From contig MFGN01000007.1 of NCBI GenBank assembly GCA_001780285.1, positions 7,346-71,345 of the forward strand: a DNA stretch of 64,000 nucleotides, given 5' to 3'. The stretch's first letter is position 1. Each line of letters starts with the position of its first letter. Made by a program: the position numbers and the translations under genes. This DNA comes from Candidatus Falkowbacteria bacterium RIFOXYD12_FULL_34_57 (GTDB lineage: Bacteria; Patescibacteriota; Patescibacteriia; Patescibacteriales; UBA12075). Under the pieces are notes generated by a model that did no database searches, was not told the DNA's origin, and saw only the letters and a program-made list of their open reading frames with translations. Below are positions 1,663-27,837 of this stretch, piece after piece.

Positions 1663-1691
1663 TTGGATTTTTATATATTTTATGTTATAAT
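1663..1691 (+). promoter_or_regulatory. Sigma70-like promoter for hsp20 (-35 TTGGAT, 17-bp spacer, extended -10 TGtTATAAT)
   Basis: TTGGAT at 1663-1668, TG at 1683-1684, TATAAT at 1686-1691. It lies about 40 nt upstream of the ATG at 1730. Confidence 0.45.
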
Positions 1692-1729
1692 ATAAGTGTT
1701 AAAAATAAATAATAATAATTTATAAATAT

Positions 1730-2194: not shown

Positions 2195-2233
2195 CTAAAA
2201 GTCTATAAAGTTTATAAAGTCAAAAGTTATAAT

Positions 2234-3994
2234 ATGAGAAAATTTTTTGTAAGAATTTTTTTATTAATTTTTCTGTATTCGGCTTGTTTTTCTTTTTTTA
2301 TTTTTCCGGTAGCAGCGCAGGAAAGCAAGGCTACTTTGTTTTTATCTCCGGCTAGCGGAAATTATACTGTTAATAAGAGTTTTGTGGTAAAAGTAATGGT
2401 AAATAGCGGAGAGGGAGTTGGTATTAATGCTGCCGAGGGGGTTATTAATTACGACCCGTCTTATGTTTTGGTTTCTAAATTATCAAATGCCAGTTCAATT
2501 TTTAAATTATGGACCACGGATCCGACTTTTTCTAATTCTGATGGTAAGATAACTTTTGGAGGTGGTTCTCCTGGAGCTTACAAGGGTTCTGCTGGAGAAA
2601 TATTTAATATAACATTTACTGCCAAGAAGTCAGGATTGGCTAATGTGACTTTTTCCTCGGGCATAGTGCTCGCAGCGGACGGAAAAGGGACCAATGTTTT
2701 TGGCGGGTTCGGACACGGTAAATACACCATATCAGAGGGAGCGGCTTCTCAGGAAAAGCCGGTTACTCCAACGCCCCCAGAAGAAGAAAAACCAAAAGGG
2801 TTATTGCCGCCAACTCCGGAAGTATCCTCCGAGACACATCCAATAGAAGATGTTTGGTATTCCAATAATGAACCTGAGTTTTCATGGAAATTATTAGCTG
2901 ATTTGGTTGGTGTAAGTTTTGAAATCGACACAGAAGAGAAAACTGAATCGACAGCTAAAATTGAAGGAGTATTGGAAAGTTATAAATTTGAACCGCAGGA
3001 TGACGGAGAATTTTATTTCCATATTAGATATAGAAATAAATTTGGATGGGGACAATCTTCCCATAGAAAATTATTAATAGATGCTACCCCCCCTAACCCC
3101 TTCTTTATTACCGTGGATAACGAAGGAGATCCAACCAACCCGACTCCAAAATTAAAATTTAAAACAAATGATAAAACATCGGGCATTGATTATTATGAAG
3201 TTGTTTCGGGGGAAACAAGAAAAAAAATCTCTGTTCAGGATGTAGAAAAAGGATATTATAAGACAGAACCGCTTGTTCCTCGTGAATATACATATACTAT
3301 TGCAGCTGTGGATAAGGCCGGAAACGCAGCATCCTCTTCTGCCACTTTTATTATAGAGCCTTTAAAGGCGCCGATTATCACCAGTATTCCCAAGGTTATT
3401 ATCAATAAAGATGAATTGATAATCCGCGGAACATCTTTCTATCCGCAGATAAATGTTGAATTGTTTATTGGCAAGGATGAAAAGAGCATGAAGAGCTTTA
3501 TGACCCAAACTGATAATGAGGGAAATTGGTCTTATTTCCACAAAGAAAAACTTGAAAAAGGAGATTATGAGATTTGGGCAAGATTGATTGATAATCGCGG
3601 AGCTAAAAGTTTGGATAGCACAAAATATTTACTCACAGTTGTTTCTCCTGGCATAATTGAATCTTTTGGATGGTTAATCATTGTTATTTTACTAATCATT
3701 ATAATAATATTAATATTATATATTTTGTATCAAAGAAATAAGTATATTTTGGAAAAAAGAAGAATAAAACAGGAAACAGAAGAAATGAAAAGCAAACTTG
3801 GAAAAATATTTGCAGCATTGCGCGAGGAAGTTGATGAGTTGATAGAACTTGCCGATCAAAGGCCCGGTCTTTCTGAGTCTGAAAGAAGGGTAAAAGAAAA
3901 ATTACAAGAGTCTTTGGACATTTCAGAAGAGTTTATCACCAAAGAAGTAGAAGATGTAGAAAAGGAAATCAAATTAAAGGAAAGAAAGTTGTAG
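2234..3994 (+). CDS. Membrane-anchored cohesin-domain protein (scaffoldin-like) with a beta-rich middle region, one TM helix and a cytoplasmic coiled-coil tail
   Basis: Signal peptide (FPVAAQE). Cohesin-like N-domain (ATLFLSPASGNYTVNKSFVVKVMVNSGEGVGINAAEGVINYDPSYVLV...IFNITFTAKKSGLANVTFS). Pro-rich linker. TM helix WLIIVILLIIIIILILYILY followed by a K/E-rich coiled coil. Confidence 0.65.
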   Translation: MRKFFVRIFLLIFLYSACFSFFIFPVAAQESKATLFLSPASGNYTVNKSFVVKVMVNSGEGVGINAAEGVINYDPSYVLVSKLSNASSIFKLWTTDPTFSNSDGKITFGGGSPGAYKGSAGEIFNITFTAKKSGLANVTFSSGIVLAADGKGTNVFGGFGHGKYTISEGAASQEKPVTPTPPEEEKPKGLLPPTPEVSSETHPIEDVWYSNNEPEFSWKLLADLVGVSFEIDTEEKTESTAKIEGVLESYKFEPQDDGEFYFHIRYRNKFGWGQSSHRKLLIDATPPNPFFITVDNEGDPTNPTPKLKFKTNDKTSGIDYYEVVSGETRKKISVQDVEKGYYKTEPLVPREYTYTIAAVDKAGNAASSSATFIIEPLKAPIITSIPKVIINKDELIIRGTSFYPQINVELFIGKDEKSMKSFMTQTDNEGNWSYFHKEKLEKGDYEIWARLIDNRGAKSLDSTKYLLTVVSPGIIESFGWLIIVILLIIIIILILYILYQRNKYILEKRRIKQETEEMKSKLGKIFAALREEVDELIELADQRPGLSESERRVKEKLQESLDISEEFITKEVEDVEKEIKLKERKL

Positions 3995-4015
3995 AATATT
4001 TATATACACATTTAT

Positions 4016-4049
4016 AGAGACGCGATTAATCGCGTCTCTTCTTTTTTGC
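4016..4049 (+). terminator. Rho-independent terminator after the cohesin gene
   Basis: Perfect 24-nt palindrome AGAGACGCGATT/AATCGCGTCTCT (4016-4039) followed by TCTTCTTTTTT. Confidence 0.8.
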
Positions 4050-4093
4050 ATTTTTTATTGAAAGTTAAATCTTTTCTTGATATAATTAATATT

Positions 4094-4711
4094 ATGAAGA
4101 CACTAGAATTAAAAAAGACAGACAGGGCTTTAGTCCTCGTAGCGCATCCGGATGACGAGACTATCTGGATGGGGGGAACTTTATTTCAGAATTTACAAAC
4201 AGACTGGACGATTTTTTCTCTTTGTAGAAAGAGTGATAATGATCGTAAACCAAAGTTCGACAATGTTTGCGCTTTTTACGGAGCACGTGGAATTATTACC
4301 GATTTAGATGATGAGGATAAGCTGAGTACCGAAAAAACCATCCCCATTATACAGGAATTAGTAGAGGAAGAAATCGGCCGAGAAAAATTTGATTATATTT
4401 TTACTCATGGTGCAAATGGCGAATACGGCCATCCCCGTCATATCGGAGTTTATTTGGCCGTGAAACTGTTAATAAAGAATAAAAGATTAAACATTAAAAA
4501 TGTTTTATGTTTTAATTATAAAAAATATAGAGAAGAAGAAAACGGGCTCATAGATATGCGCGCAAAACCAGACTCTGATTTTTTATTGGAGTTGGGGAAA
4601 AATGATATAAACCGGAAGAAGAAAATTATTGCTGAAATGTATGGATATTCATATAATGGGATAGATGTTAATCTATGTCCCAAAACAGAAGCTTTTAAAA
4701 TTTTAAGATAA
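4094..4711 (+). CDS. PIG-L/LmbE-family de-N-acetylase
   Basis: VAHPDDETIWMGG and HGANGEYGHPRH motifs. I prefer the ATG at 4094 (MKTLELKK) over the listed upstream start at 4046, which overlaps the terminator T-tract. Confidence 0.75.
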   Translation: MKTLELKKTDRALVLVAHPDDETIWMGGTLFQNLQTDWTIFSLCRKSDNDRKPKFDNVCAFYGARGIITDLDDEDKLSTEKTIPIIQELVEEEIGREKFDYIFTHGANGEYGHPRHIGVYLAVKLLIKNKRLNIKNVLCFNYKKYREEENGLIDMRAKPDSDFLLELGKNDINRKKKIIAEMYGYSYNGIDVNLCPKTEAFKILR

Positions 4712-4909
4712 TATATAAATAATAATGCGAATCTGCAAATGATATGTCTGCCAAAGGCAGATCAGTCCTCAACAGACGATTTATTTCAACATTGTTTATT
4801 GGCTGACGAATATGGCGAATTCGAATCATACGAATTAAATAAGATATTATTCGTATAATTCATTATTTGTGAATTTGTATAAAATTCGTAGATTTGCATT
4901 GTAAGTATT

Positions 4910-6055
4910 ATGAAAATTGCAGTTTTATATGCTCATCCGGTAGAGCCGGACGGATTAAGCATTCAAGGTAATCTTTTATATAGGGGGTTAAAAGAGCTTG
5001 GAGTTGATATTATGCCTTGCAATTATGCGCCCAGTTTTCAAAAACAATGGGTGCTTGATGCCTTTAAGCCTGATGTGGCGATTGGTGTCGGTTGTTGGAC
5101 ATATTACAAAGATATTATTTTGAGTCCGCAAAATCATGGAGTTATTCCCGTGCCTTGGTTTGTGGCTAATGGTTGGGTGGCTAATTATCACAAGGCGCTT
5201 GGTGATCTCCCGTTGACTTTTACTACTAGTCAATGGGTAACAGATACCTACAAGCGAGATGGTGTAGATGTGTCAAATTTTAGAGTTTTACCAATTGGTT
5301 TTGATCCGGAAGAGATAAAGCCAATACCAAAGAACGATCCCAAGGTGCAGAAATTACGGGAAATGCTTGGGATACAGCCTCATGAAAAGATGATTTTGAC
5401 TATTGGCGGAGATGTAACCAGCAAAGGCGCCCAAGAGATGTTTAAGGCTCTTGCGGAAGTGGATAAAGATTTTAAAGATTGGAAATATGTTTTAAAGCAC
5501 TGGGAATGTGAATCAGCAGAAGTTCATGGAGCAGAAGAGGATTTATTAATCGATCAGTTGGGACTTGATCGTGGTAAGATTCAATATTTATCCGGAGCTT
5601 TTTCGCATGAATTTATGTCTTATTTAATTGGCGCTTGCGATATTTATGCCGCCCCTTCCAGATTGGAGGGTTTTGGCATGATTCAAATGGAAGCAGAAGC
5701 TTGTGGTAAACCGGTAATTTCTATTGAAAAAGGGGGTCCGGTTGATACCATTATTCATGGCAAGACCGGATTTTTAGCGTCTGTAGGCGAGGAGATTATA
5801 TTGACCGAAGAGTGGGCATATGAGTCTATGGGTTTTGAGGCGGATCATAAGATAAGATTTGACAAGCCGAAAGTTTTTGCATATCGCGCCAGTGTTCCTG
5901 ATCTGACAAAATACACCCTCCAACTTTTAACTGATGATAAATTACGGGAAGAGATGGGAAAAAATGCCCATATTCATGCTCGAGATAATTTTCAATATAA
6001 AATTATAGCAAAAAGGGCACTGAGTATGCTACAGGAGAAATTAGGACTGGAGTAG
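4910..6055 (+). CDS. GT-B fold glycosyltransferase (GT4-like)
   Basis: C-terminal EGFGMIQMEAEACGKPVIS...GGPVDTIIHGKTGFL (the E-x7-E type motif of retaining GT4 enzymes). Confidence 0.75.
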   Translation: MKIAVLYAHPVEPDGLSIQGNLLYRGLKELGVDIMPCNYAPSFQKQWVLDAFKPDVAIGVGCWTYYKDIILSPQNHGVIPVPWFVANGWVANYHKALGDLPLTFTTSQWVTDTYKRDGVDVSNFRVLPIGFDPEEIKPIPKNDPKVQKLREMLGIQPHEKMILTIGGDVTSKGAQEMFKALAEVDKDFKDWKYVLKHWECESAEVHGAEEDLLIDQLGLDRGKIQYLSGAFSHEFMSYLIGACDIYAAPSRLEGFGMIQMEAEACGKPVISIEKGGPVDTIIHGKTGFLASVGEEIILTEEWAYESMGFEADHKIRFDKPKVFAYRASVPDLTKYTLQLLTDDKLREEMGKNAHIHARDNFQYKIIAKRALSMLQEKLGLE

Positions 6056-12258: not shown

Positions 12259-12326
12259 TTAAGTATAATAAATTGGACGCACAATTATGGTTGCGCTCCC
12301 TATTTAATAATTTTAAAATAAAATTT

Positions 12327-13001
12327 ATGCGAATATTAATCGTTGAAGATGAAAAAGAAATTTTAGATTTTTTGAAGAAGAGTTTAAAAAATGAATGTTA
12401 TGTGGTAGATACGGCCAGCGACGGCGAACAGGGATCATATTTAGCCAGAACCAATGATTACGATTTAATTATTTTAGACAATGTAATGCCTAAAAAGACA
12501 GGGCTTGAAGTTTGTCGGGATGTTCGCAAAGACAATAATTTTGTACCAATTCTGGTTCTTTCTGTTAAATCGGAAACAACCACTAAGGTTGATTTGCTTA
12601 ATGCCGGTGCAGATGATTATTTAACCAAGCCTTTTTCTATCGATGAATTATTTGCTCGAATCAAAGCCCTGCTTCGAAGACCAAAGGGTATAGAAAACGA
12701 AAGATTACAGGTTGATGATTTGGTTTTAGACTCCAGTAAACACATTGTTAAGAGGGGGGATGAGGATGTGTATTTAACCAGAAAAGAGTTTACGCTCCTT
12801 AAGTATTTAATGAGGCATAAGGGAACAGTGCTTTCTCGAAGCATGATCATGGAGCATGTGTGGGATATGACCGTCGACCCTTTTTCCAATACCATTGAGT
12901 CGCATATTGTGAGCCTCCGAAAAAAAGTAGATTTAACGGGTCATAAAAAATTAATTCACACAGTTTCAGGCAGAGGATACAAACTTGATACCAAAAATTA
13001 G
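12327..13001 (+). CDS. OmpR/PhoB-family response regulator (REC + winged-helix)
   Basis: MRILIVEDEKEI..DLIILDNVMPKKTG..LTKPF, plus a C-terminal Trans_reg_C pattern (LTRKEFTLLKYLM...VSGRGYKL). I trimmed the start from the listed 12273. Confidence 0.9.
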   Translation: MRILIVEDEKEILDFLKKSLKNECYVVDTASDGEQGSYLARTNDYDLIILDNVMPKKTGLEVCRDVRKDNNFVPILVLSVKSETTTKVDLLNAGADDYLTKPFSIDELFARIKALLRRPKGIENERLQVDDLVLDSSKHIVKRGDEDVYLTRKEFTLLKYLMRHKGTVLSRSMIMEHVWDMTVDPFSNTIESHIVSLRKKVDLTGHKKLIHTVSGRGYKLDTKN

Positions 13002-13079: not shown

Positions 13080-13123
13080 TTTCTTTATATTTTTTTTATA
13101 ATTTCTTTATATTTTTTTTATAA
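13080..13123. repeat. Perfect tandem duplication of a 22-bp unit, equal to four 11-bp direct repeats TTTyTTTATAw
   Basis: TTTCTTTATATTTTTTTTATAA at 13080-13101 repeats exactly at 13102-13123. Each unit splits into two 11-mers matching 9 of 11 positions. Confidence 0.9.
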
Positions 13124-13148: not shown

Positions 13149-13217
13149 AAAATTGATATTTAACAAATTATCATTATTTTTATTGTTCTTTAAAAATATT
13201 TTATATGGAGGTAGAAA

Positions 13218-14528
13218 ATGTACTGGAAAGAATTGGTAGAAGTTCAAAATTTTGGATTTAATGCCATTACTATCAGCGCTATTATTATTGTTATTTTTTC
13301 AATTTTGGAATCTTGGGGAATATATAAACAAAATAAAAAGATATGGGATAAAAAATCAGGCGAGTCTGTTTCTGTTGCCTGGTTTATTTATTTTATGTTT
13401 ATGCTTTTTTCTTATTTTGTTTATGGTATTTTTACAAAAGAAGCCGCAATTATTATTAATGGCTTAGCTTCTTTGTTTGTGGTTCCGATTGTTGTCGGTC
13501 TTTGGAGATTTAAGGGTTTTTCCAAGATAGATTTTTTTGTGTTTTTATTATGTGTGCTTGGTTTTGTTGTTATGTTGATATTTCCTTTTAAGAAAATCAT
13601 GTTTTTGTTATTCTCGTTTGGAAGTATTTTGGCTTTAATTGCGCAACTTGTGGAAATGCACAAAACAAAAGCTGTAGGAGTTATTGAAATAAAGCTAATT
13701 CGGGTTTATTTAGTTAGCACTGCGGTTTTTGTTGTTTATTCAATTTTTGTAAATGATTGGCCGCTATTAATTATATCTGTTTTGAGTTTTATTTTACTGG
13801 TTATAATATTATTGTCTTATTATCGCTTTATGGCAGGCAGCACTTTTAATGATATTCGCAGCACGACTTATTATAACAGGATAAAAATAGGCTTTTCTTC
13901 TTTGGTTAAGAAATGGAAAGGATCAGAAGCTGTATTTACTGAACATACTTTGGAGATTGAGGGCCATCCGGTAATGGAAGATTGGGAAGATGGGTATATG
14001 AAGGAGTTAGCGGAGATTGCCTGTATGAACGGCGGAGATATATTGGAAGTGGGTTTTGGTATGGGGATTTCATCCGGATATATACATAAACATGATATAT
14101 TATCACATACAGTAATAGAGGCAAATGAAGATGTATATAAAAGATTGGTAATGTTTTCTTTTATTGCAAAACACATTATCAAACCTTTGTTCGGTTTTTG
14201 GCAGGAAATAACCAAGTTTATTCCTAGTGAAACTTTTGACGGCATATTATTTGATACATATCCGATTACAAAGGAGGAAATACACAAGAATCATTTTCCG
14301 TTTTTCTGCGAGGCTTTTCGACTTTTAAAAGATGGCGGAGTTTTGACTTATTATTCTGATGAAATAGACAGTTTTTCCGAGGAACATATCAATTGTTTAA
14401 GGAGAGCCGGTTTTACCGATATTCAAAGCATGGTTTGTGTAGTTAATCCACCACAGGATTGTAAATACTGGAAGAGTGACAGAATTTTGGCGCCGATTAT
14501 TTTTAAAGGAAGAAAAGGGGGTGAATAA
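13218..14528 (+). CDS. Fusion protein: N-terminal 7-TM PQ-loop/SWEET-like domain plus C-terminal guanidinoacetate N-methyltransferase (GAMT/RMT2-family) domain
   Basis: aa 1-205 show seven hydrophobic helices in a 3+1+3 arrangement, with K/S-rich loops after TM1 and TM5. aa ~235-436 match remembered GAMT blocks: HPVMEDWEDGYM, GGDILEVGFGMGIS, FDGILFDTYP, FRLLKDGGVLTYYS, NPPQDCKYW...PIIFKG. Confidence 0.7.
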   Translation: MYWKELVEVQNFGFNAITISAIIIVIFSILESWGIYKQNKKIWDKKSGESVSVAWFIYFMFMLFSYFVYGIFTKEAAIIINGLASLFVVPIVVGLWRFKGFSKIDFFVFLLCVLGFVVMLIFPFKKIMFLLFSFGSILALIAQLVEMHKTKAVGVIEIKLIRVYLVSTAVFVVYSIFVNDWPLLIISVLSFILLVIILLSYYRFMAGSTFNDIRSTTYYNRIKIGFSSLVKKWKGSEAVFTEHTLEIEGHPVMEDWEDGYMKELAEIACMNGGDILEVGFGMGISSGYIHKHDILSHTVIEANEDVYKRLVMFSFIAKHIIKPLFGFWQEITKFIPSETFDGILFDTYPITKEEIHKNHFPFFCEAFRLLKDGGVLTYYSDEIDSFSEEHINCLRRAGFTDIQSMVCVVNPPQDCKYWKSDRILAPIIFKGRKGGE

Positions 14529-15004
14529 TGACTAAAGAAATTAAAAATTTTGGGCCGCATTTGATAATTGACGGATACGGCGCCGATCCTAAATGTTTGG
14601 AAGATGAGAAATTAATGTATTCCATATTGGATGAATTGCCTGGTTTAATCGGAATGCATAAGATTGATAAGCCGAAAGTTTACAAGTTTGACCAGACAGA
14701 AATTGCCGGAGCTTCTATTTTCGGATTTTGTTATCCTCAAAAGAATATTTTTCAAAAATTTTTTGCTTGGCTTAATAAGGGGCTTAATTTTAAAGTGGTT
14801 GGTTCGGTGTTGATTGTGGAGTCGCATATCAGTATTCACACATATTCTAAAAAAGATTGTATATTTATTGACATTTTTTCCTGTAAAGATTTTGATATCC
14901 AAAAGGCGATTGATTTTTTAGGAGATAAATACAAGATTGAGCATATGGAGATACAATTGATTAAAAGAGGAAAAAAATTTCCGATTTATAATTTACACGA
15001 ATAG
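14528..15004 (+). CDS. Pyruvoyl-dependent decarboxylase of the class-1 S-adenosylmethionine decarboxylase (SpeH/AdoMetDC) family
   Basis: GPHLIIDGYG..., then the self-processing signature VLIVESHISIHTY (Glu98-Ser99, nt 14819-14824), then IFIDIFSCKDFD. Its start overlaps the upstream stop (TAATG). It carries a ~35-aa insertion relative to remembered SpeH. Confidence 0.75.
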   Translation: MTKEIKNFGPHLIIDGYGADPKCLEDEKLMYSILDELPGLIGMHKIDKPKVYKFDQTEIAGASIFGFCYPQKNIFQKFFAWLNKGLNFKVVGSVLIVESHISIHTYSKKDCIFIDIFSCKDFDIQKAIDFLGDKYKIEHMEIQLIKRGKKFPIYNLHE

Positions 15005-15051: not shown

Positions 15052-15729
15052 ATGGAAGATATTATTATTAGAGAAGCAAGACCGGAAGACTATAAAAGTT
15101 TTAGAAAGATGGAAGAAAAAGTTTGGGCTAATTCCGATGTCCCGGTGTTAAGCGAGGAAATGTTTTTGGCTTGGATAGATGTTTTTCCACAAGGTTTTAT
15201 GTTAGCGATAAAAGACGGAGAAGTTGTTGGACATATTTATGCGCAAGTTTGTGATTTTGATCCTAAAGACGAGACTGATGAAAGAAATCTATATGAAATG
15301 ACAGATAATATGTGGACAAGAAAAACACACAACCCAAATGGTAACTGTATTTATTCTTTTAGTATTAATTCAATCCACATGGGAGCTGCTCAAAAATTAA
15401 ATTGGTATTTTATTAAGCTAGTTGAAAAACTAAATAAAGATTACTATGGCGGTCCGGTTAGAATGCCGGGGTTGGGTGAGTATATGAAAAAAATGCAGAG
15501 AAAACGTTTAACAAAAAAATTCGTAAAAGAATATGCGCAATATGCTCATGACACCATTAAGGGTTTAAGAAAAGAAGAGCCTTTGGTTTATGATATGGTT
15601 TTAACACCACTGTTTAAATTGCCGGTTGCGAAATTTGGTAAAATTATAAAAAATTTTTTTCCATACGCGAAAGGCGCAGAAAGATGGGCATGTGTTGTTT
15701 ATTGTGATAATTTAAAATATATAAAATAA
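15052..15729 (+). CDS. GNAT-like N-acetyltransferase (tentative)
   Basis: IIIREARPEDYKSFRKME..., ..LAIKDGEVVGHIYAQ.., and ..SINSIHMGAAQKLNWYFIKL resemble the GNAT beta-strand/AcCoA-loop layout. Weak call. Confidence 0.45.
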   Translation: MEDIIIREARPEDYKSFRKMEEKVWANSDVPVLSEEMFLAWIDVFPQGFMLAIKDGEVVGHIYAQVCDFDPKDETDERNLYEMTDNMWTRKTHNPNGNCIYSFSINSIHMGAAQKLNWYFIKLVEKLNKDYYGGPVRMPGLGEYMKKMQRKRLTKKFVKEYAQYAHDTIKGLRKEEPLVYDMVLTPLFKLPVAKFGKIIKNFFPYAKGAERWACVVYCDNLKYIK

Positions 15730-15735
15730 TTTTTT

Positions 15736-15765
15736 AAGGACGATTTATTGTAATCGTCCTTTATT
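15736..15765 (+). terminator. Hairpin (possible attenuator/terminator) immediately upstream of the kinase gene
   Basis: AAGGACGATT (15736-15745) / loop TATTGT / AATCGTCCTT (15752-15761), then TATT. It ends 10 nt before the ATG at 15772. Confidence 0.4.
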
Positions 15766-15771: not shown

Positions 15772-17931
15772 ATGTTTATTTTTGATTATTTATTAATATT
15801 TTTAGCTATAGGCATTATTTTTTGGTCTCTTCTATTTTTTTTCAAAAAGCGTAATATGCGAGAAGCAAAATATCTTGCATTTTTTATTTTTTTTACCGGT
15901 TTTTGGATGTTGTCATTATATATAGCCCTTTTTGTTAAGAGTGTTTTTGGTGTCATTCTTTGGACTAGAATGTCTTATTTTTTTGGTTTTTTAGCAATAC
16001 TTTATTTTTTGTTTTTTATATCAATTTTTTATAATTTATCTGAAAATTTATTTAAAAAATATAAAATTATTATTATTATTTCATTTATTTTTTGCATTTT
16101 AAATTTTATTCTTCCAAACAATTATATATATTCAGGTGTGGAAATTTTTAAAGAACAGACACCCCGTGGCCAATATGGAAATTTTTATAAATTTTTTTCA
16201 ATTTTTATTCTTTGTATTATTCTATTAACTATAAAAAAAATTTTTTCTGAATATAAAAATTTAACTAATAAAAAAAGACAACAAATAAAATATGTTATAT
16301 TGGGGGGTATTGTGGCCATACTTGGTGGAATGATATTTGTTGTTTTGTTGCCATTGTTTGGTATTGAAGAATTTTATAGCATTGGCCCATTATTTTTTAT
16401 GTTTTTTATAGGTTTTACCAGCTACGCAATTATTAAACACCAGCTCCTTGATATTAGAATTATAATACAACGCAGCATTATTTATTCTTTTTCGCTAGCT
16501 TTTATTGTGGCATTATACTTGGTGCTGCTTTTTATTTTTGAGTTTATTTTTAAGAGCATTACCAGTGTTACTATGACCAGTGCTATTACCACCGTGATTA
16601 TTGGTATTTATGGCGTGCCGCTGATTGAGGGATATTTTAAAAAAATAACTGATAAAATATTTTTTAAAAATAAATATAATTATTCTGTGGTTTTGTATGA
16701 AATTAGCGAAATTTTGAACAACAACATTAGTCTGGAGGTGTTGCTTGAAAAGATATTTAATAAATTCAAAAAAATATTAAAGGTTGAAAAAATAAGAATA
16801 ATTGTACTTGGACAGGGAATTGTTTTTGATGAATATGCAAATCTGCGAAGTATCAGAGAAGAATTTCCCAGTGAATTTGAAGAGATGATTGTGGGACATA
16901 ATAATTCAGTCTTAACCAATTTTGATATCTATAAATTACTTGAAAAGATTGATCATCAAAATAAGAAAGATTTGGTTTATAAAAAAGTTTTAGAGAGAGC
17001 TCAAAAACTTGAAAAAGAAAATGACTTTGAAATTTTTGTAGCTATGATTTCCAGAAAGAAATTAATCGGTCTTATGTTTTTAGGTAGAAAAATGTCCGGT
17101 GATGATTATACTAAGGAAGATATAAACTTATTAAAAACATTCGCTCACCAAGCGGCGGTTGCATTGGAAAAATCACAGTTATATGAAAAAGCCAAAGATT
17201 ATTCCAGGGAATTAGAAAAAAAAGTGAAAAAAAGAACATCGAGAATAAGCGGCCTGCAGGAAGAACAGAAACAAATGATGCTGGAAATCGCCCATGGTCT
17301 GCAAACACCGCTTACTATTATCAAGGGGCAGCTCTCTGCGCTTCAGGAAGAGATCAAACACTCAGAGAAAATAGAATCACTAGAGAAATCAATAGATCGT
17401 ATTTCTAAATTTATTTATGCCATGCTTAGATCGGCCAAGCTTGATTCTCGAGATAAAAGTGAATATAAATTGATAAACCTTAGTGCCCTATTGGAAGAAT
17501 TTTCAGAAAGTGTTCATATTATTATTCAGGAAAAAAGCATAAAACTTATTCACGACATAGAAGAAAATATTTGTATTATGGGAAACAAGGGGGAAATTGA
17601 AGAACTTTTGATGAATCTGATTAGCAATAGTATTAAATACATGAATGAAGATCGGGAAAATAAAATTATTATTAATTTGTATAGACATAAAAATAAACAC
17701 AACAAAGCGATATTAACTATAGAGGATACGGGTATAGGTATTAGCAGTGAGCATTTGCCGAATTTATTTAGCAAATTTTATCGTATTAAAGATGACACCA
17801 AGACAAAGGGCACGGGTCTTGGGCTGGTGATTTGTAAAAAAATAGTCGAAAAACATAATGGCAGAATAAAGGTGGAAAGTCAGGTTGGAAAAGGGACAAA
17901 ATTTATTATTGATTTTCCCTTGAAAAAATAG
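15772..17931 (+). CDS. Sensor histidine kinase with a polytopic N-terminal membrane sensor, GAF-like region, HisKA and HATPase_c
   Basis: About 8 hydrophobic helices in aa 1-290. H-box EIAHGLQTPLT. N/G boxes LISNSIKY, EDTGIGI, GTGLGLVICKKIV. Confidence 0.85.
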   Translation: MFIFDYLLIFLAIGIIFWSLLFFFKKRNMREAKYLAFFIFFTGFWMLSLYIALFVKSVFGVILWTRMSYFFGFLAILYFLFFISIFYNLSENLFKKYKIIIIISFIFCILNFILPNNYIYSGVEIFKEQTPRGQYGNFYKFFSIFILCIILLTIKKIFSEYKNLTNKKRQQIKYVILGGIVAILGGMIFVVLLPLFGIEEFYSIGPLFFMFFIGFTSYAIIKHQLLDIRIIIQRSIIYSFSLAFIVALYLVLLFIFEFIFKSITSVTMTSAITTVIIGIYGVPLIEGYFKKITDKIFFKNKYNYSVVLYEISEILNNNISLEVLLEKIFNKFKKILKVEKIRIIVLGQGIVFDEYANLRSIREEFPSEFEEMIVGHNNSVLTNFDIYKLLEKIDHQNKKDLVYKKVLERAQKLEKENDFEIFVAMISRKKLIGLMFLGRKMSGDDYTKEDINLLKTFAHQAAVALEKSQLYEKAKDYSRELEKKVKKRTSRISGLQEEQKQMMLEIAHGLQTPLTIIKGQLSALQEEIKHSEKIESLEKSIDRISKFIYAMLRSAKLDSRDKSEYKLINLSALLEEFSESVHIIIQEKSIKLIHDIEENICIMGNKGEIEELLMNLISNSIKYMNEDRENKIIINLYRHKNKHNKAILTIEDTGIGISSEHLPNLFSKFYRIKDDTKTKGTGLGLVICKKIVEKHNGRIKVESQVGKGTKFIIDFPLKK

Positions 17932-20037: not shown

Positions 20038-21087
20038 ATGTTTAAAAAAATTATAATTTTATTATTTGTTGCATTATTTTTATCCGGTTGTGGACAGAAA
20101 ATTAAAACTGAAAACACGCAAGGAGAAAAAGAATTGAATATTTATAACTGGGAGGATTATTTAGGGGAAACCACGATTGCAGATTTTGAGAAAGAATTCG
20201 GCGTCAAAGTAAATCTTTTTACTTTTGAAGATGAAGATTTTATGCTCTCTGATGTGCAGGTTAATCCGGATAAATATGATTTAATTATTGCTTCCGATGG
20301 ATTGATTTATAACATGAGTGAATTAAAGCTTTTGTCTAAGATTAACAAGAACGATATTCCTAATTTAAAAAATATTGAAGATAAATTTTTAAATCTCTGG
20401 TATGATTCGGAAAATAACTACTCAGTTCCCTATTTATGGGGAACTACCGGGATTATTTTTAATACCAAATATATTCCCGAAGACACAGACAGTTGGTCTA
20501 TTTTGTTTAATGAGCAATATAAGGGAAAAATAGCTATGTTGAATAATAACGAGGAAGTAATTGGCGCCGCCTTGAAATATTTAAATTATCCCTTTATGGC
20601 CAAAAGCATAGAACAACTGGAAGAAGCAAAATTGATTGCGGAAAAACAAAAGGATATTATTAGTGGATATGAGGATGTTGTTGCTATTCGCAGTGAAATG
20701 ATTGACGAGAAATTATGGGTAGCTCAAATCTATAGTGGAGAAGCACTGTATGCGATGAATGAAAATAAAAATTTAAAATATATAATTCCCCGCGAAGGTG
20801 CTGAGGTCTGGATTGATAATTTGGCTATCCCGTCCGAAGCCAAGAACAAAGAAACGGCGGAGAAATTTATAAATTTTATTTTGCGTCCCGACATTAGCGC
20901 TGATATAGCCAATTACTTATGGTATGCCAATACTAATGACGCGGCTCGGGAATTTACAAATGCAGAAATTTTGGAAGATGAAGCGCTTTATCCTCCGCAA
21001 GATATTTTGGAAAAGTTAGAATACCTTAAACCCAATAAATTTAATAACGAGTATAATAAAATATGGTCACAGCTCCAATTAAAATAA
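20038..21087 (+). CDS. PotD/PotF-family polyamine-binding lipoprotein (orphan; no ABC permease or ATPase adjacent)
   Basis: Lipobox LFLSGCG. LNIYNWEDYL...FEKEFGVKV...YDLIIASDG...YSVPYLWGTTGIIFN tracks remembered E. coli PotD blocks. Confidence 0.8.
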   Translation: MFKKIIILLFVALFLSGCGQKIKTENTQGEKELNIYNWEDYLGETTIADFEKEFGVKVNLFTFEDEDFMLSDVQVNPDKYDLIIASDGLIYNMSELKLLSKINKNDIPNLKNIEDKFLNLWYDSENNYSVPYLWGTTGIIFNTKYIPEDTDSWSILFNEQYKGKIAMLNNNEEVIGAALKYLNYPFMAKSIEQLEEAKLIAEKQKDIISGYEDVVAIRSEMIDEKLWVAQIYSGEALYAMNENKNLKYIIPREGAEVWIDNLAIPSEAKNKETAEKFINFILRPDISADIANYLWYANTNDAAREFTNAEILEDEALYPPQDILEKLEYLKPNKFNNEYNKIWSQLQLK

Positions 21088-23924
21088 AATTTAGAACAAA
21101 ATTTTTTATTTTGTTGATCCTTGTTTCCGTTACCCCCCTGCTTCTTTTGTATTTTTTATTGCCGTTTCGCATTGAAGAAGAAACCAAGAAGATATTGGTG
21201 GAAGATTTTAAAGAACATGCCCACCACACCTCTGTAACAGTAGAGAGTTTTTTTGACCGTATAGAGCAGGATGTTATTTTATTGTCAAAGAACAGAATAA
21301 TAGAATCTCCGGAGACGGGCACAGAAGAGAAATTAAAAGAATTACAAAAAATGAAAGAAGTTAGGAATATATACGATGACATTATTTTAATAAATAAGGA
21401 TGGTAATGTCCTAACCTCTACCTCCTTTAATTATCGTGGTGCATGGGAATCACGCGATTATTTTCAAGAGGCTCTACAGGAAAAGGTGGTACTTTCAGAT
21501 GCGCACTTGATACTTGAACCTAAAAAATTAGTTTTAGTTGCTGTTGCTCCTGTTTTTTTTGGAAATGAAGTATCGTCCGTGGTTGCTATTCAGCTGGATA
21601 TGCAGCATGTTTGGAGCTTGATTAAAAATTTTACTAGTGATGAAGAATATTATTTGGTAAATAATAATGGAAGATTAATATCTGAATATGAAAATATGGA
21701 TATTTTTGAAGAATTTAAAACAAAAGAAGATGTTAAATGTTCATTGAGATTTAAAGAATACACAAAAGACGGTCAAAAAATATTAGAAACATCAGCCCCC
21801 ATAATGAAAAATAAAATTTATAAAGGAGAGGGGTGTTGGAATTTAATATTTACCAAGAATGAATCAGGATTATTGGTTTATATTAATGGAATTGAGAGAT
21901 TAATATTCTTGATTTTATTTTTGGCTATTTTATTGTCTGTTTTGGTAAGCGCATTTTTAGCAAGATCTATTTCTGCTCCAATTGAACAGCTTGTAATAGC
22001 CACAAAGGAATTTGCGCGTGGTAATTTTAATTTTAAAACCAAAATTAAAGCCAATAATGAATTAAAAATGCTTGGAGATTCCTTTAATAAAACAGGAGAA
22101 GAAATTTTAAAGAGTCATAATTTAGAAAAAATATATAGCAGGAAATTGGAAGATGAGGTGCGGGAAAAAACTGAAAAATTAACCAAAACGCTCAATTCAA
22201 TGAAACGCGACAAAGATAATCTTGAGAGTCAAAGAGTAGCAACATTAAATATTCTGGAGGATATATCCGAATCACAAAAAGAAATGGAGGATTTAAATAT
22301 TAAATTAAAAAAACGAACAGGAGAACTGGAGGCTCTGCGAAAATTGGGTAATGACCTGAGCGGGGTCCTGGATATGGAAGAGGCAGTTACTGTTATAAAT
22401 CAATATTTGGACAGCTTTTTGGATTTTAGCACGGTAACTTATTTAATTATAAATCCCATCAGGGAAGAAGAATTAATATATTCCACATACCTAAAAGAAG
22501 ATGTTAGTGAAAATTTTGTTGAAGAGGTGAAGAATGATTTATTGAAATTTATTGCTAATGAAACAGATAGTGAATTGTTATCGATTAAAAAAATTCTCAG
22601 TATTGTAAAACCTCATATTTTTGGTAAAAGGTTGAATAATAAAAATGAATCTAAAATTATATCTAAAATAATTTTCCCCTTAAGAATGGGAAGTTATTCT
22701 TTGGGGGCTATTCAGATTGCCTCAAGCAAGCCGGGGCTTTTTAGTAATACTCAAAACGGAATGACAAGCGCCATGGTAGCCACTTTTTCATTGTCTGTTG
22801 CCAAACTTCACACCTTAATACGCTCACAGCACTCTAAAACAATCTCCTTGGTTCAAAGTTTAAACGACGGAGTGGTGATGTTTAATATGGAAAAAAGCGT
22901 AGTGCTTACAAATAAAGCTATATTAGATTTTACTGGTTTTTCCAGCGATCATTTTAATTTATATGAATTTGACAAATTATTTAGCACTGTTGATGTAAAA
23001 AAAATGATTAATCAAATGTTTAGGGAGGGGAATATTGTTCATATTAGCGAAATACAATTTAAAAATAAATTTTATGAATTTTTAACAACGCCGGTAAAGG
23101 ATAGCTTTGGCAAAATTGTGGGCGGCGCTATTATTTTGCACGACATTACCCACTTAAAAGAAATAGATAAAATGAAGACAGAGTTTGTTTCCGTTGCTTC
23201 CCACCAGCTCCGCACCCCGCTTACTGCTATTAAGCTTTTTACTGAAATGCTTATTAATGGCGATGTGGGAGAGTTGCAAGACAGACAGAAGCAGTACCTG
23301 GGAGATATTTATGAGTCTACTACCAGAATGGTAAGACTGGTAAATGATTTGCTTAGCCTGTCTCGTTTAGAATCAGGAAGACTTCGTGTCGAACCCGTTG
23401 ATACTAATATGATTAGTTTTATTCAAAGTATAATTGAGGAAATTGTTCCGCTTGCTTCCAGTAAAAATATTAAAATAGTTTTTGAAAAAATAGTGGATGA
23501 ATTGCCAAGTGTGGCAATAGACCCAACGCTTATGAGACAGGTTATCAACAATCTAATAACTAATGCCGTAAGATATTCTTTGGGCAGAAAAGAGGGGCTA
23601 GTTAATGTTAATATTAAGAAAAAAGAAAAGAATATTGAGATATCTATAAAGGATAACGGAATTGGAATCCCTAAAGAAGTTCAGTCTAGAATTTTTGAAA
23701 AGTTTTTTAGGGCAGATAATGCCATAAAGAGCGAAACAGAAGGAACAGGATTGGGGCTTTATGTTTCCAAGATGATAGTGGAAAGTTCTGGAGGAAAAAT
23801 ATGGTTTAAATCGGAAAAAAATAAAGGTACTACGTTCTTTATTTCTATTCCTGTGGGCGGTATGAAAAGAAAAAAGGGGGAAAAGACATTGGCCGGCTCT
23901 AGTGGAGAAGTTAGTTATTCATAA
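21063..23924 (+). CDS. Sensor histidine kinase: TM - dCache-like periplasmic domain - TM - HAMP - coiled coil - GAF/PAS - HisKA - HATPase_c
   Basis: Its start overlaps the PotD-like gene by 25 nt. H-box FVSVASHQLRTPLT. LITNAVRY, DNGIGIP, GTGLGLYVSKMIV. The first TM helix follows Met1 directly, so no downstream start is plausible. Confidence 0.85.
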   Translation: MVTAPIKIKFRTKFFILLILVSVTPLLLLYFLLPFRIEEETKKILVEDFKEHAHHTSVTVESFFDRIEQDVILLSKNRIIESPETGTEEKLKELQKMKEVRNIYDDIILINKDGNVLTSTSFNYRGAWESRDYFQEALQEKVVLSDAHLILEPKKLVLVAVAPVFFGNEVSSVVAIQLDMQHVWSLIKNFTSDEEYYLVNNNGRLISEYENMDIFEEFKTKEDVKCSLRFKEYTKDGQKILETSAPIMKNKIYKGEGCWNLIFTKNESGLLVYINGIERLIFLILFLAILLSVLVSAFLARSISAPIEQLVIATKEFARGNFNFKTKIKANNELKMLGDSFNKTGEEILKSHNLEKIYSRKLEDEVREKTEKLTKTLNSMKRDKDNLESQRVATLNILEDISESQKEMEDLNIKLKKRTGELEALRKLGNDLSGVLDMEEAVTVINQYLDSFLDFSTVTYLIINPIREEELIYSTYLKEDVSENFVEEVKNDLLKFIANETDSELLSIKKILSIVKPHIFGKRLNNKNESKIISKIIFPLRMGSYSLGAIQIASSKPGLFSNTQNGMTSAMVATFSLSVAKLHTLIRSQHSKTISLVQSLNDGVVMFNMEKSVVLTNKAILDFTGFSSDHFNLYEFDKLFSTVDVKKMINQMFREGNIVHISEIQFKNKFYEFLTTPVKDSFGKIVGGAIILHDITHLKEIDKMKTEFVSVASHQLRTPLTAIKLFTEMLINGDVGELQDRQKQYLGDIYESTTRMVRLVNDLLSLSRLESGRLRVEPVDTNMISFIQSIIEEIVPLASSKNIKIVFEKIVDELPSVAIDPTLMRQVINNLITNAVRYSLGRKEGLVNVNIKKKEKNIEISIKDNGIGIPKEVQSRIFEKFFRADNAIKSETEGTGLGLYVSKMIVESSGGKIWFKSEKNKGTTFFISIPVGGMKRKKGEKTLAGSSGEVSYS

Positions 23925-24466: not shown

Positions 24467-26158
24467 ATGAAAATTTCCAATTTAAAATTAAAGAGTATTT
24501 TAGTGGATCCGGGGCATATATCAGAAAAAGATTTTAATCAGGCCATGAATCTTTCCAATGAAAAGAATATTTCAATTGAAGATATTTTATTGGATCGCGG
24601 TTTGATTAATGATGGACAATTGGGGCACATTATTGCCGAGTTTATCGGCGTGCCTTATGTTAATTTAAGAAAAGAAAAAATTGACGACATGGTTTTAAAT
24701 CTTATTCCAGAGATAATTGCCAAGTCCAAAAAAATTATTATTTTTTATGAAGATGAAAATGAAATTAAGGTAGGAATGATGGATCCGCAAGATTTAGAAA
24801 TTATTCATATTTTAGAAAAAAAATTTAATCGTCAAATTATTCCGTATTATATCACCAAAAATGATTTTTTAGAAAATTTATCAAGGTATAATGTGGGTAT
24901 TGATGAGGAAGCATCTTCGGTGCTTGCTAAATTGCAGGACAATAATTTGGATATGGATGAAAAAAATAAAGCTAATGTTAGAATGGTTGAATTATTATTA
25001 GAGCATGGACATTATAGCAAGGCGTCCGATATTCACATTGAGCCGTATAAAAAAATAGTGATTGTGCGTTTTAGAATAGACGGGGTTTTGCATGATGTAT
25101 TGGAAATTCCTAAAAATTTGCTTTCATTAATAATTTCCAGAATAAAAATACTTTCCAAAATGCGGATAGACGAGCATTTTGCCGCTCAAGACGGGAAGTT
25201 TCAATTTAAGGTGAAAAATGATCAGATTGATGTGAGAGTTTCTATTGTTCCGATTACGGAAGGTGAGAATGTAGTAATGAGGCTTCTTTCAACTAAGAGT
25301 AGAAAGATGGACTTGGACAGCTTGGGGCTGGATAGCGCCGATCTTGATAAAATTAAAAAGGCTATTAAGAGTCCTCATGGCATGATTCTGGTTACTGGGC
25401 CAACAGGATCCGGTAAGACGACTACTATTTATGAATTTTTAAAGATTTTAAATACCAAAGAAATCCATATCGCCACCATTGAAGATCCGGTAGAATATGA
25501 TATTGAGGGAATAAGTCAGATACAAGTTAACAAAAAAACAAACCTAACATTTGCTAATGGGCTTCGGGCGATAGTTAGGCAGGATCCGGATATTATCATG
25601 ATTGGAGAGATAAGAGATCATGAAACAGCAGATATTGCTGTTAATTCTGGTCTCACTGGTCATTTGGTACTTTCAACACTGCATGCTAATGATGCGGCAA
25701 CAACCTTGCCCAGATTATTGGATATGGGAATAGAGCCCTATTTAATAGCGTCTACGGTTAGGGTGGTGATAGCACAAAGATTATTGAGAAAGATTTGTGA
25801 AAAATGTCGGACATCCTATGAGCTTCCTGAAAATGAAATGATTATTGTAAGAAATAATAAAAAATTAAAAGAAATATTTAATATAAAAGAAGGGGAAGAT
25901 AAAAAAATAACTTTATATAAGGGGTCTGGTTGCAAGGTTTGTGCCCATACCGGATACAGCGGAAGAATCGGCATCTTTGAGGTTTTAGAGAATCGTGAGA
26001 ACATAAAAGAACTCATTATAAAAAGAGCTAGTAGCAGTGAAATTTCAAAGATGGCGCGTGCAAATGGGATGACCACCATGTTTGAAGATGGAATTCAAAA
26101 AGTTATTCAGGGCATTACTACCCTAGAAGAGGTTTTGCGGGTAGCGGAGATAGTATAG
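24467..26158 (+). CDS. pilB: Type IV pilus assembly ATPase PilB (GspE family)
   Basis: Walker A GPTGSGKTTT, Asp/His boxes, and a tetracysteine motif (CEKC...CKVC). Confidence 0.9.
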   Translation: MKISNLKLKSILVDPGHISEKDFNQAMNLSNEKNISIEDILLDRGLINDGQLGHIIAEFIGVPYVNLRKEKIDDMVLNLIPEIIAKSKKIIIFYEDENEIKVGMMDPQDLEIIHILEKKFNRQIIPYYITKNDFLENLSRYNVGIDEEASSVLAKLQDNNLDMDEKNKANVRMVELLLEHGHYSKASDIHIEPYKKIVIVRFRIDGVLHDVLEIPKNLLSLIISRIKILSKMRIDEHFAAQDGKFQFKVKNDQIDVRVSIVPITEGENVVMRLLSTKSRKMDLDSLGLDSADLDKIKKAIKSPHGMILVTGPTGSGKTTTIYEFLKILNTKEIHIATIEDPVEYDIEGISQIQVNKKTNLTFANGLRAIVRQDPDIIMIGEIRDHETADIAVNSGLTGHLVLSTLHANDAATTLPRLLDMGIEPYLIASTVRVVIAQRLLRKICEKCRTSYELPENEMIIVRNNKKLKEIFNIKEGEDKKITLYKGSGCKVCAHTGYSGRIGIFEVLENRENIKELIIKRASSSEISKMARANGMTTMFEDGIQKVIQGITTLEEVLRVAEIV

Positions 26159-27828: not shown

Positions 27829-27837
27829 GCAAATAAG

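Follow-up and report, generated by a model that had tools for sequence, protein, structure and literature searches.

What might a bacterium gain from joining a transporter fold covalently to an enzyme that methylates guanidino groups? The question is raised by one gene in a stretch of 64,000 nucleotides of contig MFGN01000007.1 (assembly GCA_001780285.1) from Candidatus Falkowbacteria bacterium RIFOXYD12_FULL_34_57, a very small groundwater bacterium of the Patescibacteria (the candidate phyla radiation); this whole stretch is referred to below as the window. The gene (13218..14528, + strand) is an ATG-initiated single open reading frame (ORF) of 436 residues, in which a seven-transmembrane (7-TM) SWEET-fold domain is followed by a methyltransferase of the guanidinoacetate N-methyltransferase (GAMT) family. 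A preliminary description had noticed this architecture from the sequence; it did not mention the surrounding operon, which carries most of the functional information. We tentatively propose, with somewhat less than even confidence, that the gene product would be a bifunctional inner-membrane protein serving a membrane-coupled pathway to an N-methylated, probably acylated agmatine-like amine.

The existence of a genuine fusion, as asserted in the preliminary description, is borne out by several observations. The reading frame is uninterrupted and contains no N bases, and a Shine-Dalgarno sequence (GGAGG, 13207-13211) is placed 6 nt before the start codon. An identical full-length architecture is found in P0003 (68% identity, Logan SRR22388293), P0004 (52% identity, ENA) and P0005 (50% identity, Falkowbacteria metagenome-assembled genome (MAG) GCA_043801965.1); P0001, P0002 and other members of the 'SRC' clusters were left out as the same sequence with internal deletions, originating from a protein-level assembly of SRR3989339. 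The exact 436-residue product is on record from three contigs, and the protein and its neighbours occur in Candidatus Falkowbacteria bacterium RIFOXYB2_FULL_34_18. The segment between both domains (13845..13913, + strand, residues 210-232) carries the motif F.D.R..T...R..IGF, is invariant in an alignment of the four fusion proteins and has pLDDT values of 81-83 in the AlphaFold2 model of the full-length protein (overall pLDDT 94.6, pTM 0.79). The same motif is present at the N-termini of unfused GAMT-like homologs; this linker is the methyltransferase's own N-terminal lid segment. An erroneous joining of two genes by assembly or sequencing might be suspected from the GenBank entries of four sibling Falkowbacteria MAGs (OGF27271.1, OGF30134.1, OGF37615.1 and OGF39370.1), in which only the last 87 of the 436 codons (14268-14528) are called, as 'hypothetical protein'. 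Because three independent assemblies carry the same fusion with the same linker, and in view of the open frame, the three identical records and the modelled junction, the probability of such an artefact is considered negligible. As a consequence of the truncated gene calls, public protein databases built from these entries do not contain the fusion.

The architecture is rare. A census was made with home-made profiles over 56 species-level GAMT-like loci from 185,579 species genomes (one per species), and the 7-TM fusion is found in a single one of these loci, that of the Falkowbacteria MAG encoding P0005. Hydrophobic segments are absent from every other long GAMT-like homolog checked. One candidate for a 3-TM::GAMT fusion, L014, was rejected; its tblastn match covers query residues 140-430, but the upstream translation contains a stop codon and no TM domain. 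A characterised fusion of a SWEET with a methyltransferase was not found in the searchable literature, in line with the preliminary description, to whose author none was known.

The C-terminal part (13914..14510, + strand, residues 233-431) is a class I S-adenosylmethionine (SAM) methyltransferase domain of the GAMT family. HMMER searches against the PDB yielded rat GAMT (1xcj) with E=7.4e-40 and human GAMT (3orh) with E=1.8e-38, which places the family assignment of the preliminary description on significant matches; the sequence blocks listed there are all present in the alignment to the rat and human enzymes (PVMEDWE..YM, GG.ILEVGFGMGI, FDGILFDTYP, FRLLKDGGVLTY and PPQDCKYW...P..FKG). Superposition of the model onto human and rat GAMT with Foldseek gave TMt values of 0.86-0.87 and a root-mean-square deviation (rmsd) of 1.7-2.0 Å at 36-38% identity, followed by spermidine synthases as next structural neighbours (TMt ~0.5, E ~1e-7). 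The family PF27704 (GuanidinoAc_N-MeTrfase) is the precomputed Pfam annotation in homologs. Motif I (L276-EVGFGMG-283) and E301 align with L64-EVGFGMA and E89 of the rat enzyme, and rat E45 and D134 correspond to E257 and D346. The surrounding motifs are widely kept, 'VMEDWE' in 91/119 and 'FDTYP' in 88/119 sequences (118 homologs and rat GAMT). Rat Glu45, the counterpart of E257, clamps the guanidinium. Asp134 of GAMT acts as the catalytic base (PMC12842229). Mammalian GAMT (1XCJ, 3ORH) and the query thus have in common the fold, the SAM motif I, the ribose-binding Glu, the residue pairs E45/E257 and D134/D346 and the N-terminal lid. Unlike mammalian GAMT, the query is fused to a membrane domain, has a decarboxylase as partner and lacks both an amidinotransferase partner and a 13-residue loop.

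This loop, CNLTSWGELMKSK, follows 'LTY' in GAMT and is deleted in the query after Y378. The short form is shared by 97 of 99 measurable sequences (rat GAMT and 98 homologs, query included), and the long form is confined to rat GAMT and P0116, the single homolog that is fused to an amidinotransferase. Amidinotransferase makes guanidinoacetate, and backbone amides of L170 and T171 in the loop reportedly hold the carboxylate of this substrate. The loop appears to be tied to guanidinoacetate because rat GAMT and the amidinotransferase-fused P0116 alone have kept it. These data suggest that the short-loop bacterial subfamily, including the query, acts on a guanidino compound other than guanidinoacetate, and since the segment that reportedly binds the carboxylate is deleted, the fusion enzyme would not be expected to be a creatine synthase. 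Among the window ORFs of at least 150 residues no amidinotransferase (AGAT-type) domain was found. A 'YSDE' motif, considered as an amine-binding substitute for the lost loop, was dropped, as the aligned residues of rat GAMT are Y-T-D.

The N-terminal part is predicted to adopt the 7-TM 3+1+3 fold of SWEET/PQ-loop proteins over residues 1-209. In AlphaFold2 models of the full-length protein and of residues 1-215 alone (pLDDT 95.5, pTM 0.89) the first triple-helix bundle, TM1-TM3 (13263..13511, + strand, residues 16-98), consists of helices 16-45, 53-73 and 76-98, the inversion linker helix TM4 (13524..13580, + strand) of residues 103-121 and the second bundle, TM5-TM7 (13590..13844, + strand, residues 125-209), of helices 125-150, 158-177 and 181-209; the position of TM4 is also supported by superposition of the entire domain onto 7-TM SWEETs. 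The seven helices and their layout had been correctly read from the hydrophobicity of the sequence. Foldseek ranks the plant SWEETs AtSWEET13 (5xpd, TMq 0.73) and OsSWEET2b (5ctg, TM 0.71) at the top of the PDB matches, and cystinosin, the KDEL receptor and SemiSWEETs behind them; an unrelated polytopic fold, which would have refuted the preliminary description, is not what the search returned. Each repeat also superposes separately onto SemiSWEETs (TMt 0.83-0.88, rmsd 1.0-1.4 Å). At the sequence level, repeat 1 (residues 17-93) matches the PDB SemiSWEET 4rng with E=5e-5 and repeat 2 (residues 134-208) matches 4qnc, 9kax and 5uhq weakly (E=0.09-0.25). The comparison with 5XPD and 5CTG reveals the same 3+1+3 bundles over ~207 columns (TMq 0.68-0.73) and the PQ glutamines in TM1 and TM5; in contrast to the eukaryotic SWEETs, to which it is only 13-17% identical, the query is bacterial, carries an enzyme on its C-terminus and is devoid of the proline tetrad. 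The loops after TM1 (KKSGESVS) and TM5 (KTKAVGVIE), previously taken as carriers of the PQ signature, do stand at the '(P)Q' positions and retain the glutamine, but the prolines are gone, the dipeptides being K37-Q38 and A142-Q143. Lys and Arg residues number 18 in the predicted cytoplasmic loops and linker and 4 outside, which supports an N-out/C-in topology with the methyltransferase domain predicted in the cytoplasm, as deduced earlier from the SWEET-like arrangement.

Prokaryotic members of the SWEET family are usually described as 3-TM SemiSWEETs (PMC9520054). A profile search of 1.84 billion protein representatives retrieved 505 relatives of the 7-TM domain, 385 of them at E<=1e-10, almost all stand-alone proteins of ~210 residues aligning from end to end. 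Because eight of ten sampled stand-alone relatives exceed the Pfam MtN3_slv cutoff (25-41 bits), the domain is a member of a genuine family of bacterial full-length 7-TM SWEET-fold proteins, which comprises ~500 clusters at 50% identity, all without the canonical PQ prolines. The family signature, deduced from 126 members, consists of E8, G13, N15, Q38, Y69-G70, Q143, G154, W171 and Y174, with Q38 conserved to 100%, Q143 to 91% and Y69/G70 to 95-97%; the spacing from the Gln to K-S-x-x-G-x-S agrees with that of SemiSWEETs. At L078 two genes of the family occur in tandem. Genes for SemiSWEET-like proteins of ~100 residues with 3 TM helices are also seen within ~1 kb of GAMT-like genes at L055 (4589-4918) and L056 (7414-7719), which derive from MAGs of Saccharibacteria and other Patescibacteria and where the GAMT-like genes likewise adjoin 7-TM histidine kinases; with 2/56 loci these cases are too few and were not counted as support.

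The substrate of the methyltransferase is best approached through its neighbours. The stop codon of the fusion gene overlaps the start of the next gene as TAATG, and this gene (14528..15004, + strand, 158 residues) codes for a pyruvoyl-dependent decarboxylase homologous to S-adenosylmethionine decarboxylase (AdoMetDC/SpeD; Pfam AdoMet_dc, E=1.6e-22) with a predicted cleavage between E98 and S99. Residues S99, H104 and C119, equivalent to S63, H68 and C83 of the T. maritima enzyme, are invariant in four orthologs and form the Ser/His/Cys triad that is common to AdoMetDC and its arginine- and ornithine-decarboxylase descendants (PMC10407285). According to Li et al. 2023 (PMC10407285), true AdoMetDC has one invariant Pro that the arginine type does not conserve. 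This residue, at +8 from the pyruvoyl Ser (HTWPE), is Ser in the window (HTYSK), where the motif reads VLIVE-SHISIHTYSKK...IDIFSC (the hyphen marks the cleavage site) with Glu(-1) and Thr(+6) as in AdoMetDC and arginine decarboxylase (ADC). The same replacement is widespread: 17 of the 18 distinct GAMT-linked AdoMetDC-like loci read E-SHISxH(T/S)Y(S/A/E/K) and only L024 keeps the Pro. The ornithine decarboxylase (ODC) type is marked by four residues (PMC10407285), whose positions Gln(-5), Thr(-1), Phe(+6) and Tyr(+14) were inferred from supplementary Fig. S5 with the pyruvoyl Ser as anchor; V, E, T and F are found at these positions, and the ODC signature is absent from the window enzyme. Neither a spermidine synthase nor an agmatinase is encoded among the window ORFs of the size given above, and no spermidine synthase was found in the related loci profiled. 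The decarboxylase is thus most likely of the ADC type, judged by its residues. It resembles the SpeDA enzymes (PMC10407285) in keeping the triad, in lacking the AdoMetDC Pro and the ODC signature and in having no spermidine synthase nearby; it differs from them in its partners, a methylase and a GNAT-like protein here and agmatinase or SpeY there, and in a 28-residue insertion, and the likeness is one of residues, drawn outside the phylogeny of Li et al. The insertion, IFGFCYPQKNIFQKFFAWLNKGLNFKVV, is hydrophobic, occupies residues 64-91 (14717-14800) just before the cleavage site and is shared by the window and L002, while L001 and L003 lack it.

The census indicates that the partnership with a decarboxylase extends beyond the window. 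An AdoMetDC-like decarboxylase lies within 2.5 kb of the GAMT-like gene in 11/56 loci and a pyridoxal phosphate (PLP) fold-III decarboxylase in 17/56, one of either type being present beside 28/56 genes and never both beside the same one. The PLP enzymes are LysA-like and fall under the lysA cutoff; fold-III enzymes of this branch are amino-acid decarboxylases. Independent gene fusions of GAMT with decarboxylases of both kinds are likewise found (P0007-10, 12, 18; P0053, 62, 67, 68, 71, 72, 83). Because an unrelated PLP fold that decarboxylates amino acids takes the same partner position, the data argue that the AdoMetDC homolog of the window would decarboxylate an amino acid rather than SAM. 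If the neighbour were nevertheless a true AdoMetDC, the GAMT-fold domain might act as a polyamine synthase that transfers the aminopropyl group of decarboxylated SAM. Such a function would be in keeping with the spermidine synthases as next structural neighbours, with AdoMetDC and ornithine/arginine decarboxylases as natural partners of aminopropyltransferases, the PLP-decarboxylase fusions supplying the amine acceptor, and with a PotD-like polyamine-binding protein encoded 5.5 kb downstream. However, the diagnostic Pro is missing from every GAMT-linked AdoMetDC homolog except one; motif I (LEVGFGMG) lacks the Asp of the GGGDG loop of spermidine synthases, which selects decarboxylated SAM; the guanidinium clamp E257/D346 is conserved; and the two decarboxylase types exclude each other, as if one replaced the other rather than complemented it. 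The decarboxylase partner at the sister locus L068 (see below) is moreover an enzyme of the radical SAM methylase type and not an aminopropyltransferase. Polyamine synthesis is on these grounds considered very unlikely.

The third gene of the operon (15052..15729, + strand, 225 residues) encodes a GNAT-like protein. Its match to Pfam Acetyltransf_1 is weak (E=0.23); a profile of four orthologs searched against the PDB gave the GNAT-like domain of CurA (2ree, E=0.0065) and the PBCV-1 polyamine acetyltransferase (3qb8, E=0.16), the dipeptide G111-A112 is invariant, and the UniRef name is N-acetyltransferase domain protein. A GNAT-like gene accompanies 9/11 AdoMetDC-type loci and 0/17 PLP-type loci. 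The pairing of a methylase with a GNAT-like protein recalls BlsL of blasticidin S biosynthesis in Streptomyces, likewise a bacterial SAM enzyme, whose methylation target is the guanidino group of a small molecule derived from arginine (PMC5572114). BlsL was reported to be 33% identical to GAMT and to methylate the delta-N efficiently only after a nearby amine has been acylated (PMC5572114), an acylation-first order that parallels the gene pair found here. Unlike the fusion protein, BlsL is soluble, acts on a peptidyl-nucleoside and is fused neither to a decarboxylase nor to a transporter. The N-methylagmatine units of saskemycin have been attributed to an SznE-type enzyme, not to one of the GAMT type, and for methylagmatine and Patescibacteria GAMT homologs the searchable literature yielded nothing describing this system. 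In L003/L019 (7155-7985), L024 and L028 an additional amine N-methyltransferase gene of the NNMT/PNMT/TEMT family is inserted between the GAMT::decarboxylase fusion and the GNAT-like gene, which hints at a possible further methylation of the product.

A sister locus, L068 (Logan SRR22388293_169438, 121-5370), from the same metagenome as P0003, provides an informative comparison. It encodes P0271, the closest stand-alone relative of the 7-TM domain (55% identity), and corresponds to the window in its promoter, with the repeated TTCTTTATATTTTTTTTATAA motif and the leader element TTGTTCTTTAAAA, and in its GNAT-like protein (44% identity) and kinase (62% identity). Here the 7-TM gene is separate and forms a stop/start overlap with the gene that follows, whose product joins a B12-binding radical SAM domain to an AdoMetDC-like domain. 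In NCBIfam the radical SAM part comes closest to class B C-/P-methyltransferases, all under cutoff, and the decarboxylase domain has Q(-5), T(-1) and F(+6), i.e. three of the four ornithine markers, with Phe at +14. It thus appears that the guanidino N-methylase is paired with a decarboxylase of the arginine type, and a methylase of a different type with one of the ornithine type. Such a co-variation is expected if the paired enzymes act on one and the same amino-acid skeleton. The unfused, translationally coupled 7-TM gene implies that the 7-TM protein would be a partner of the whole pathway, and the fusion in the window appears to be a join of adjacent operon genes.

Based on these data we propose the following scenario. 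The fusion would have arisen by joining the first two genes of a small operon. Arginine would be converted to agmatine by the translationally coupled pyruvoyl enzyme descended from AdoMetDC, and the GAMT-fold domain would N-methylate the guanidino group of an arginine-derived amine, with E257 and D346 clamping the guanidinium and D346 serving as base in analogy to D134 of GAMT. The methyl acceptor is most likely agmatine or acyl-agmatine, the primary amine probably being acylated by the GNAT-fold protein. The 7-TM domain would conduct the substrate or the product, so that the chemistry takes place at the cytoplasmic mouth of the pore. The coupling of transport to methylation, put forward in the preliminary description, is an inference; a partnership with transporters is supported by the unfused 7-TM neighbour in L068 and by an EamA-family transporter gene beside 8/17 PLP-type loci (and 0/11 AdoMetDC-type loci), which in L007 and L011 abuts or overlaps the PLP-decarboxylase::GAMT fusion. 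A sugar is unlikely to be the substrate of the 7-TM domain, given the gene context. Regarding the direction of transport, we slightly lean to export of the finished amine, because the EamA partners point that way and because a novel product would need its own exit.

Several findings weigh against this scenario, and they lend themselves to other explanations. The 7-TM domain of the query stays under both family cutoffs, with 22.4 versus 23.7 bits for Pfam MtN3_slv (PF03083) and 44.7 versus 80 for NCBIfam SemiSWEET_2 (E=1.1e-11, in two stretches), and a Pfam assignment to the PQ-loop families, a check proposed in the preliminary description, was narrowly missed. Residues 1-215 contain P90, P123 and P182 as sole prolines and none in TM1, TM2, TM5 and TM6, the hinge positions of the SWEET tetrad; mutation of any one of the tetrad prolines is reported to abolish sugar transport in AtSWEET1 (PMC9520054). 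In addition, the distant relatives of the 7-TM domain (17 JGI metagenome loci and L070) are surrounded by housekeeping genes (ParB, Pth, pyruvate kinase, DprA and CobW); substrate hints were sought from these neighbours and dropped as uninformative. The domain might not transport at all, and instead tether the methyltransferase to the membrane, e.g. next to the 7-TM kinase, or bind a regulatory ligand, a use of the fold for which the KDEL receptor among the structural matches is a precedent; the replacement by Phe of W171, conserved to 95% across the family, fits into this picture. We regard a pure anchor or sensor as rather unlikely. The whole family of ~500 clusters is without PQ prolines, yet the pore-lining Q38, Q143 and Y69/G70 are strongly conserved, which suggests function and not decay; in L068 the 7-TM protein is separate and translationally coupled and so not a mere enzyme tether; and EamA transporters hold the analogous place in PLP-type loci.

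On the enzymatic side, the assignment of the decarboxylase to the ADC type by the missing Pro is a rule of thumb, and SpeDA is poorly separated from SpeD in the study of Li et al. (PMC10407285). Moreover, 28/56 GAMT-like genes have no decarboxylase neighbour, and the family may not share one function. An activity on proteins might be considered for these members. Yeast Rmt2 belongs to the GAMT family and methylates ribosomal protein L12, and an Rmt2-like protein arginine methyltransferase could modify a protein close to the membrane, for instance the adjacent kinase. Besides the decarboxylase-free half of the homologs, SET-domain fusions (P0090, P0091), a 7-TM histidine kinase gene within 4 kb of 15/56 GAMT-like genes, including those of the decarboxylase-free loci L015, L055 and L056, and the loss of the small-molecule carboxylate loop, which would open the pocket, are compatible with such a role. 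It is difficult to reconcile with the repeated independent fusions and the tight linkage with two unrelated decarboxylase families, with the co-variation of methylase type and decarboxylase signature and with the conservation of the N-terminal lid, the segment that in GAMT closes the active site over a small substrate. Protein arginine methylation is possible for the 28 decarboxylase-free loci and unlikely for the window, where we rate it as highly improbable.

The preference for export is itself weakened by energetics, as exporting a cation via a uniporter opposes the membrane potential. The opposite direction would amount to an import-and-trap device, in which a 7-TM uniporter admits an external cationic guanidino compound such as arginine, agmatine or a host-derived analogue and the fused methyltransferase modifies it, thereby rendering the uptake one-way. 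The architecture accommodates this as well as it does export, and the inside-negative potential would favour the entry of a cation. SWEET/PQ-loop proteins are generally known as uniporters. PQLC2 transports arginine, lysine and histidine, a range that would be in keeping with an arginine/agmatine pathway, and in the case of PnuC, a uniporter with a SWEET-like fold, cytoplasmic trapping through modification by NadR makes the flux of nicotinamide riboside one-way. These analogies have their bounds: PQLC2 and cystinosin share the superfamily and the 7-TM fold with the query, and cystinosin is among its structural matches, but they are eukaryotic lysosomal proteins matching less well than SWEETs (E ~1e-2), the query has no assignment to them at the sequence level, and the likeness to PnuC/NadR is limited to the working principle, as these are separate proteins relying on phosphorylation instead of methylation. 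The external compound could be perceived by the two-component system that flanks the enzyme genes, and Patescibacteria are described as limited in biosynthesis and apparently host-dependent (PMC12102498). On the other hand, a common amino acid would hardly need a dedicated importer, the partner in PLP-type loci belongs to the EamA family, whose well-known members are exporters, and the pore is joined to the methylase, though the decarboxylase would act first on imported arginine. We therefore hold import and trapping to be possible, on balance doubtful, and retain the pathway to an N-methylated agmatine-like amine, with a slight preference for an exit through the 7-TM domain, as the working scenario.

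How this pathway is regulated may be deduced from the ends of the operon. The window, L001 and L002 agree in their gene order: fusion gene, AdoMetDC-like gene, GNAT-like gene of ~225 residues and a histidine kinase with a 7-TM sensor. The kinase (15772..17931, + strand) carries this sensor at its N-terminus (Pfam HisKA_7TM, E=1.1e-12; HisKA; HATPase_c), and a 7-TM kinase is found at the equivalent place in L001, L002, L003, L010, L013-L020 and L068. Upstream of the fusion gene a response regulator of the OmpR/PhoB family is encoded (12273..13001, + strand; Pfam Response_reg E=5.9e-29, Trans_reg_C E=4.1e-25), as also in L003, L010, L013, L016-L018 and L020 and, altogether, in 9/11 AdoMetDC-type loci; the contigs of L001 and L002 show no regulator upstream of the fusion gene. 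Regulator-first blocks without a membrane domain, with methylase and decarboxylase as separate genes or fused, occur in L003, L010, L013, L014, L016-L018 and L020 and partially in L008/9 and L064.

Between the regulator and fusion genes a tandem direct repeat resembling an operator is found (13081..13123, + strand), which consists of two copies of TTCTTTATATTTTTTTTATAA (21 nt) with a start-to-start distance of 22 bp, upstream of the extended -10 element TGTATAAT. A direct pattern search located TTCTT[TC]ATATTT only at 13081 and 13103 in the whole window; a third TTCTTTA half-site lies in the 5' leader, as does the related element TTGTTCTTTAAAA (13183-13196). The promoter motif recurs before the orthologous operons (L001 3234 and 3296, L002 9 and 31, L068 1-21) and has been kept although the proteins of orthologous operons are only 50-68% identical. 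The direct repeat is probably bound by the OmpR-type regulator encoded next to it, and we envisage that this regulator and the 7-TM histidine kinase control expression through the conserved operator. A riboswitch in the 216-nt leader was considered and rejected; a search of Rfam at permissive threshold gave a chance match to a small RNA (E=0.06) and no guanidine or SAM riboswitch. Between the GNAT-like and kinase genes a perfect 10-bp inverted repeat (AAGGACGATT...AATCGTCCTT, 15736-15761) without a strong T-run is located, possibly a partial terminator or a processing site that separates the expression of the enzymes from that of the sensor.

The arrangement of regulator, enzymes and sensor invites a further speculation, which we deem unlikely at present: the operon might represent a small-molecule signalling cassette composed of a regulator, a signal synthase with the SWEET-fold domain as built-in exporter and a 7-TM kinase sensing the released amine, with a logic comparable to agr-type quorum sensing. 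In such a cassette, the chemical 'dialect' would be varied between close strains by swapping modules, an arginine-type decarboxylase plus guanidino N-methylase in the window against an ornithine-type decarboxylase plus B12 radical SAM methylase in L068, on a constant chassis of promoter, GNAT-like protein and kinase.

The remaining window contains further features of potential relevance. At 20038-23924, 2 kb downstream of the operon kinase, the gene for a polyamine-binding protein of the PotD/PotF kind (NCBIfam PotD, E=1.6e-52) runs into the start of a gene for a histidine kinase of dCache-HAMP-PAS architecture. Its direct neighbours include neither an ABC permease nor an ATPase, and the binding protein looks like a polyamine-sensing input to this kinase. 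A metK gene, for SAM synthetase, is located behind a SAM riboswitch (Rfam RF00162, 57.4 bits) at 37101-38342; the riboswitch directly upstream of metK implies that the organism makes and regulates its own SAM. Dockerin- and cohesin-domain proteins are encoded at the start of the window (255-3994) and a type IV pilus set with a PilB-like ATPase, PilC, PilM and pilins at 24467-31539, both of which would be surface structures that one expects of an epibiont.

Both domain families are already known, and bacterial GAMT-like proteins have a Pfam model of their own, PF27704. Not found in the accessible literature were a SWEET-fold::methyltransferase fusion, the loss of the substrate-pocket loop in a bacterial GAMT subfamily, the pairing of GAMT-like enzymes with two decarboxylase folds and an operon flanked by a two-component system with swappable methylase and decarboxylase modules. 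Patescibacteria have very small genomes and a limited biosynthetic capacity (PMC12102498, PMC11665869), and for this reason a conserved operon under two-component regulation that spends SAM and presumably acyl-CoA on an arginine-derived amine is unlikely to be incidental. The branch of 7-TM SWEET-fold proteins with a cytoplasmic enzyme offers a natural system in which a coupling of transport to chemistry can be tested for this fold. A large bacterial sister group of GAMT, in turn, shows a remodelled pocket and a repeated linkage or fusion to decarboxylases of two unrelated folds, which predicts an undescribed class of N-methylated guanidino amines, and the module swap seen in L068 provides a concrete hypothesis for how such pathways may diversify. 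If the operon indeed proved to be a signalling cassette, it would represent the first candidate pathway to a signalling metabolite in the candidate phyla radiation.

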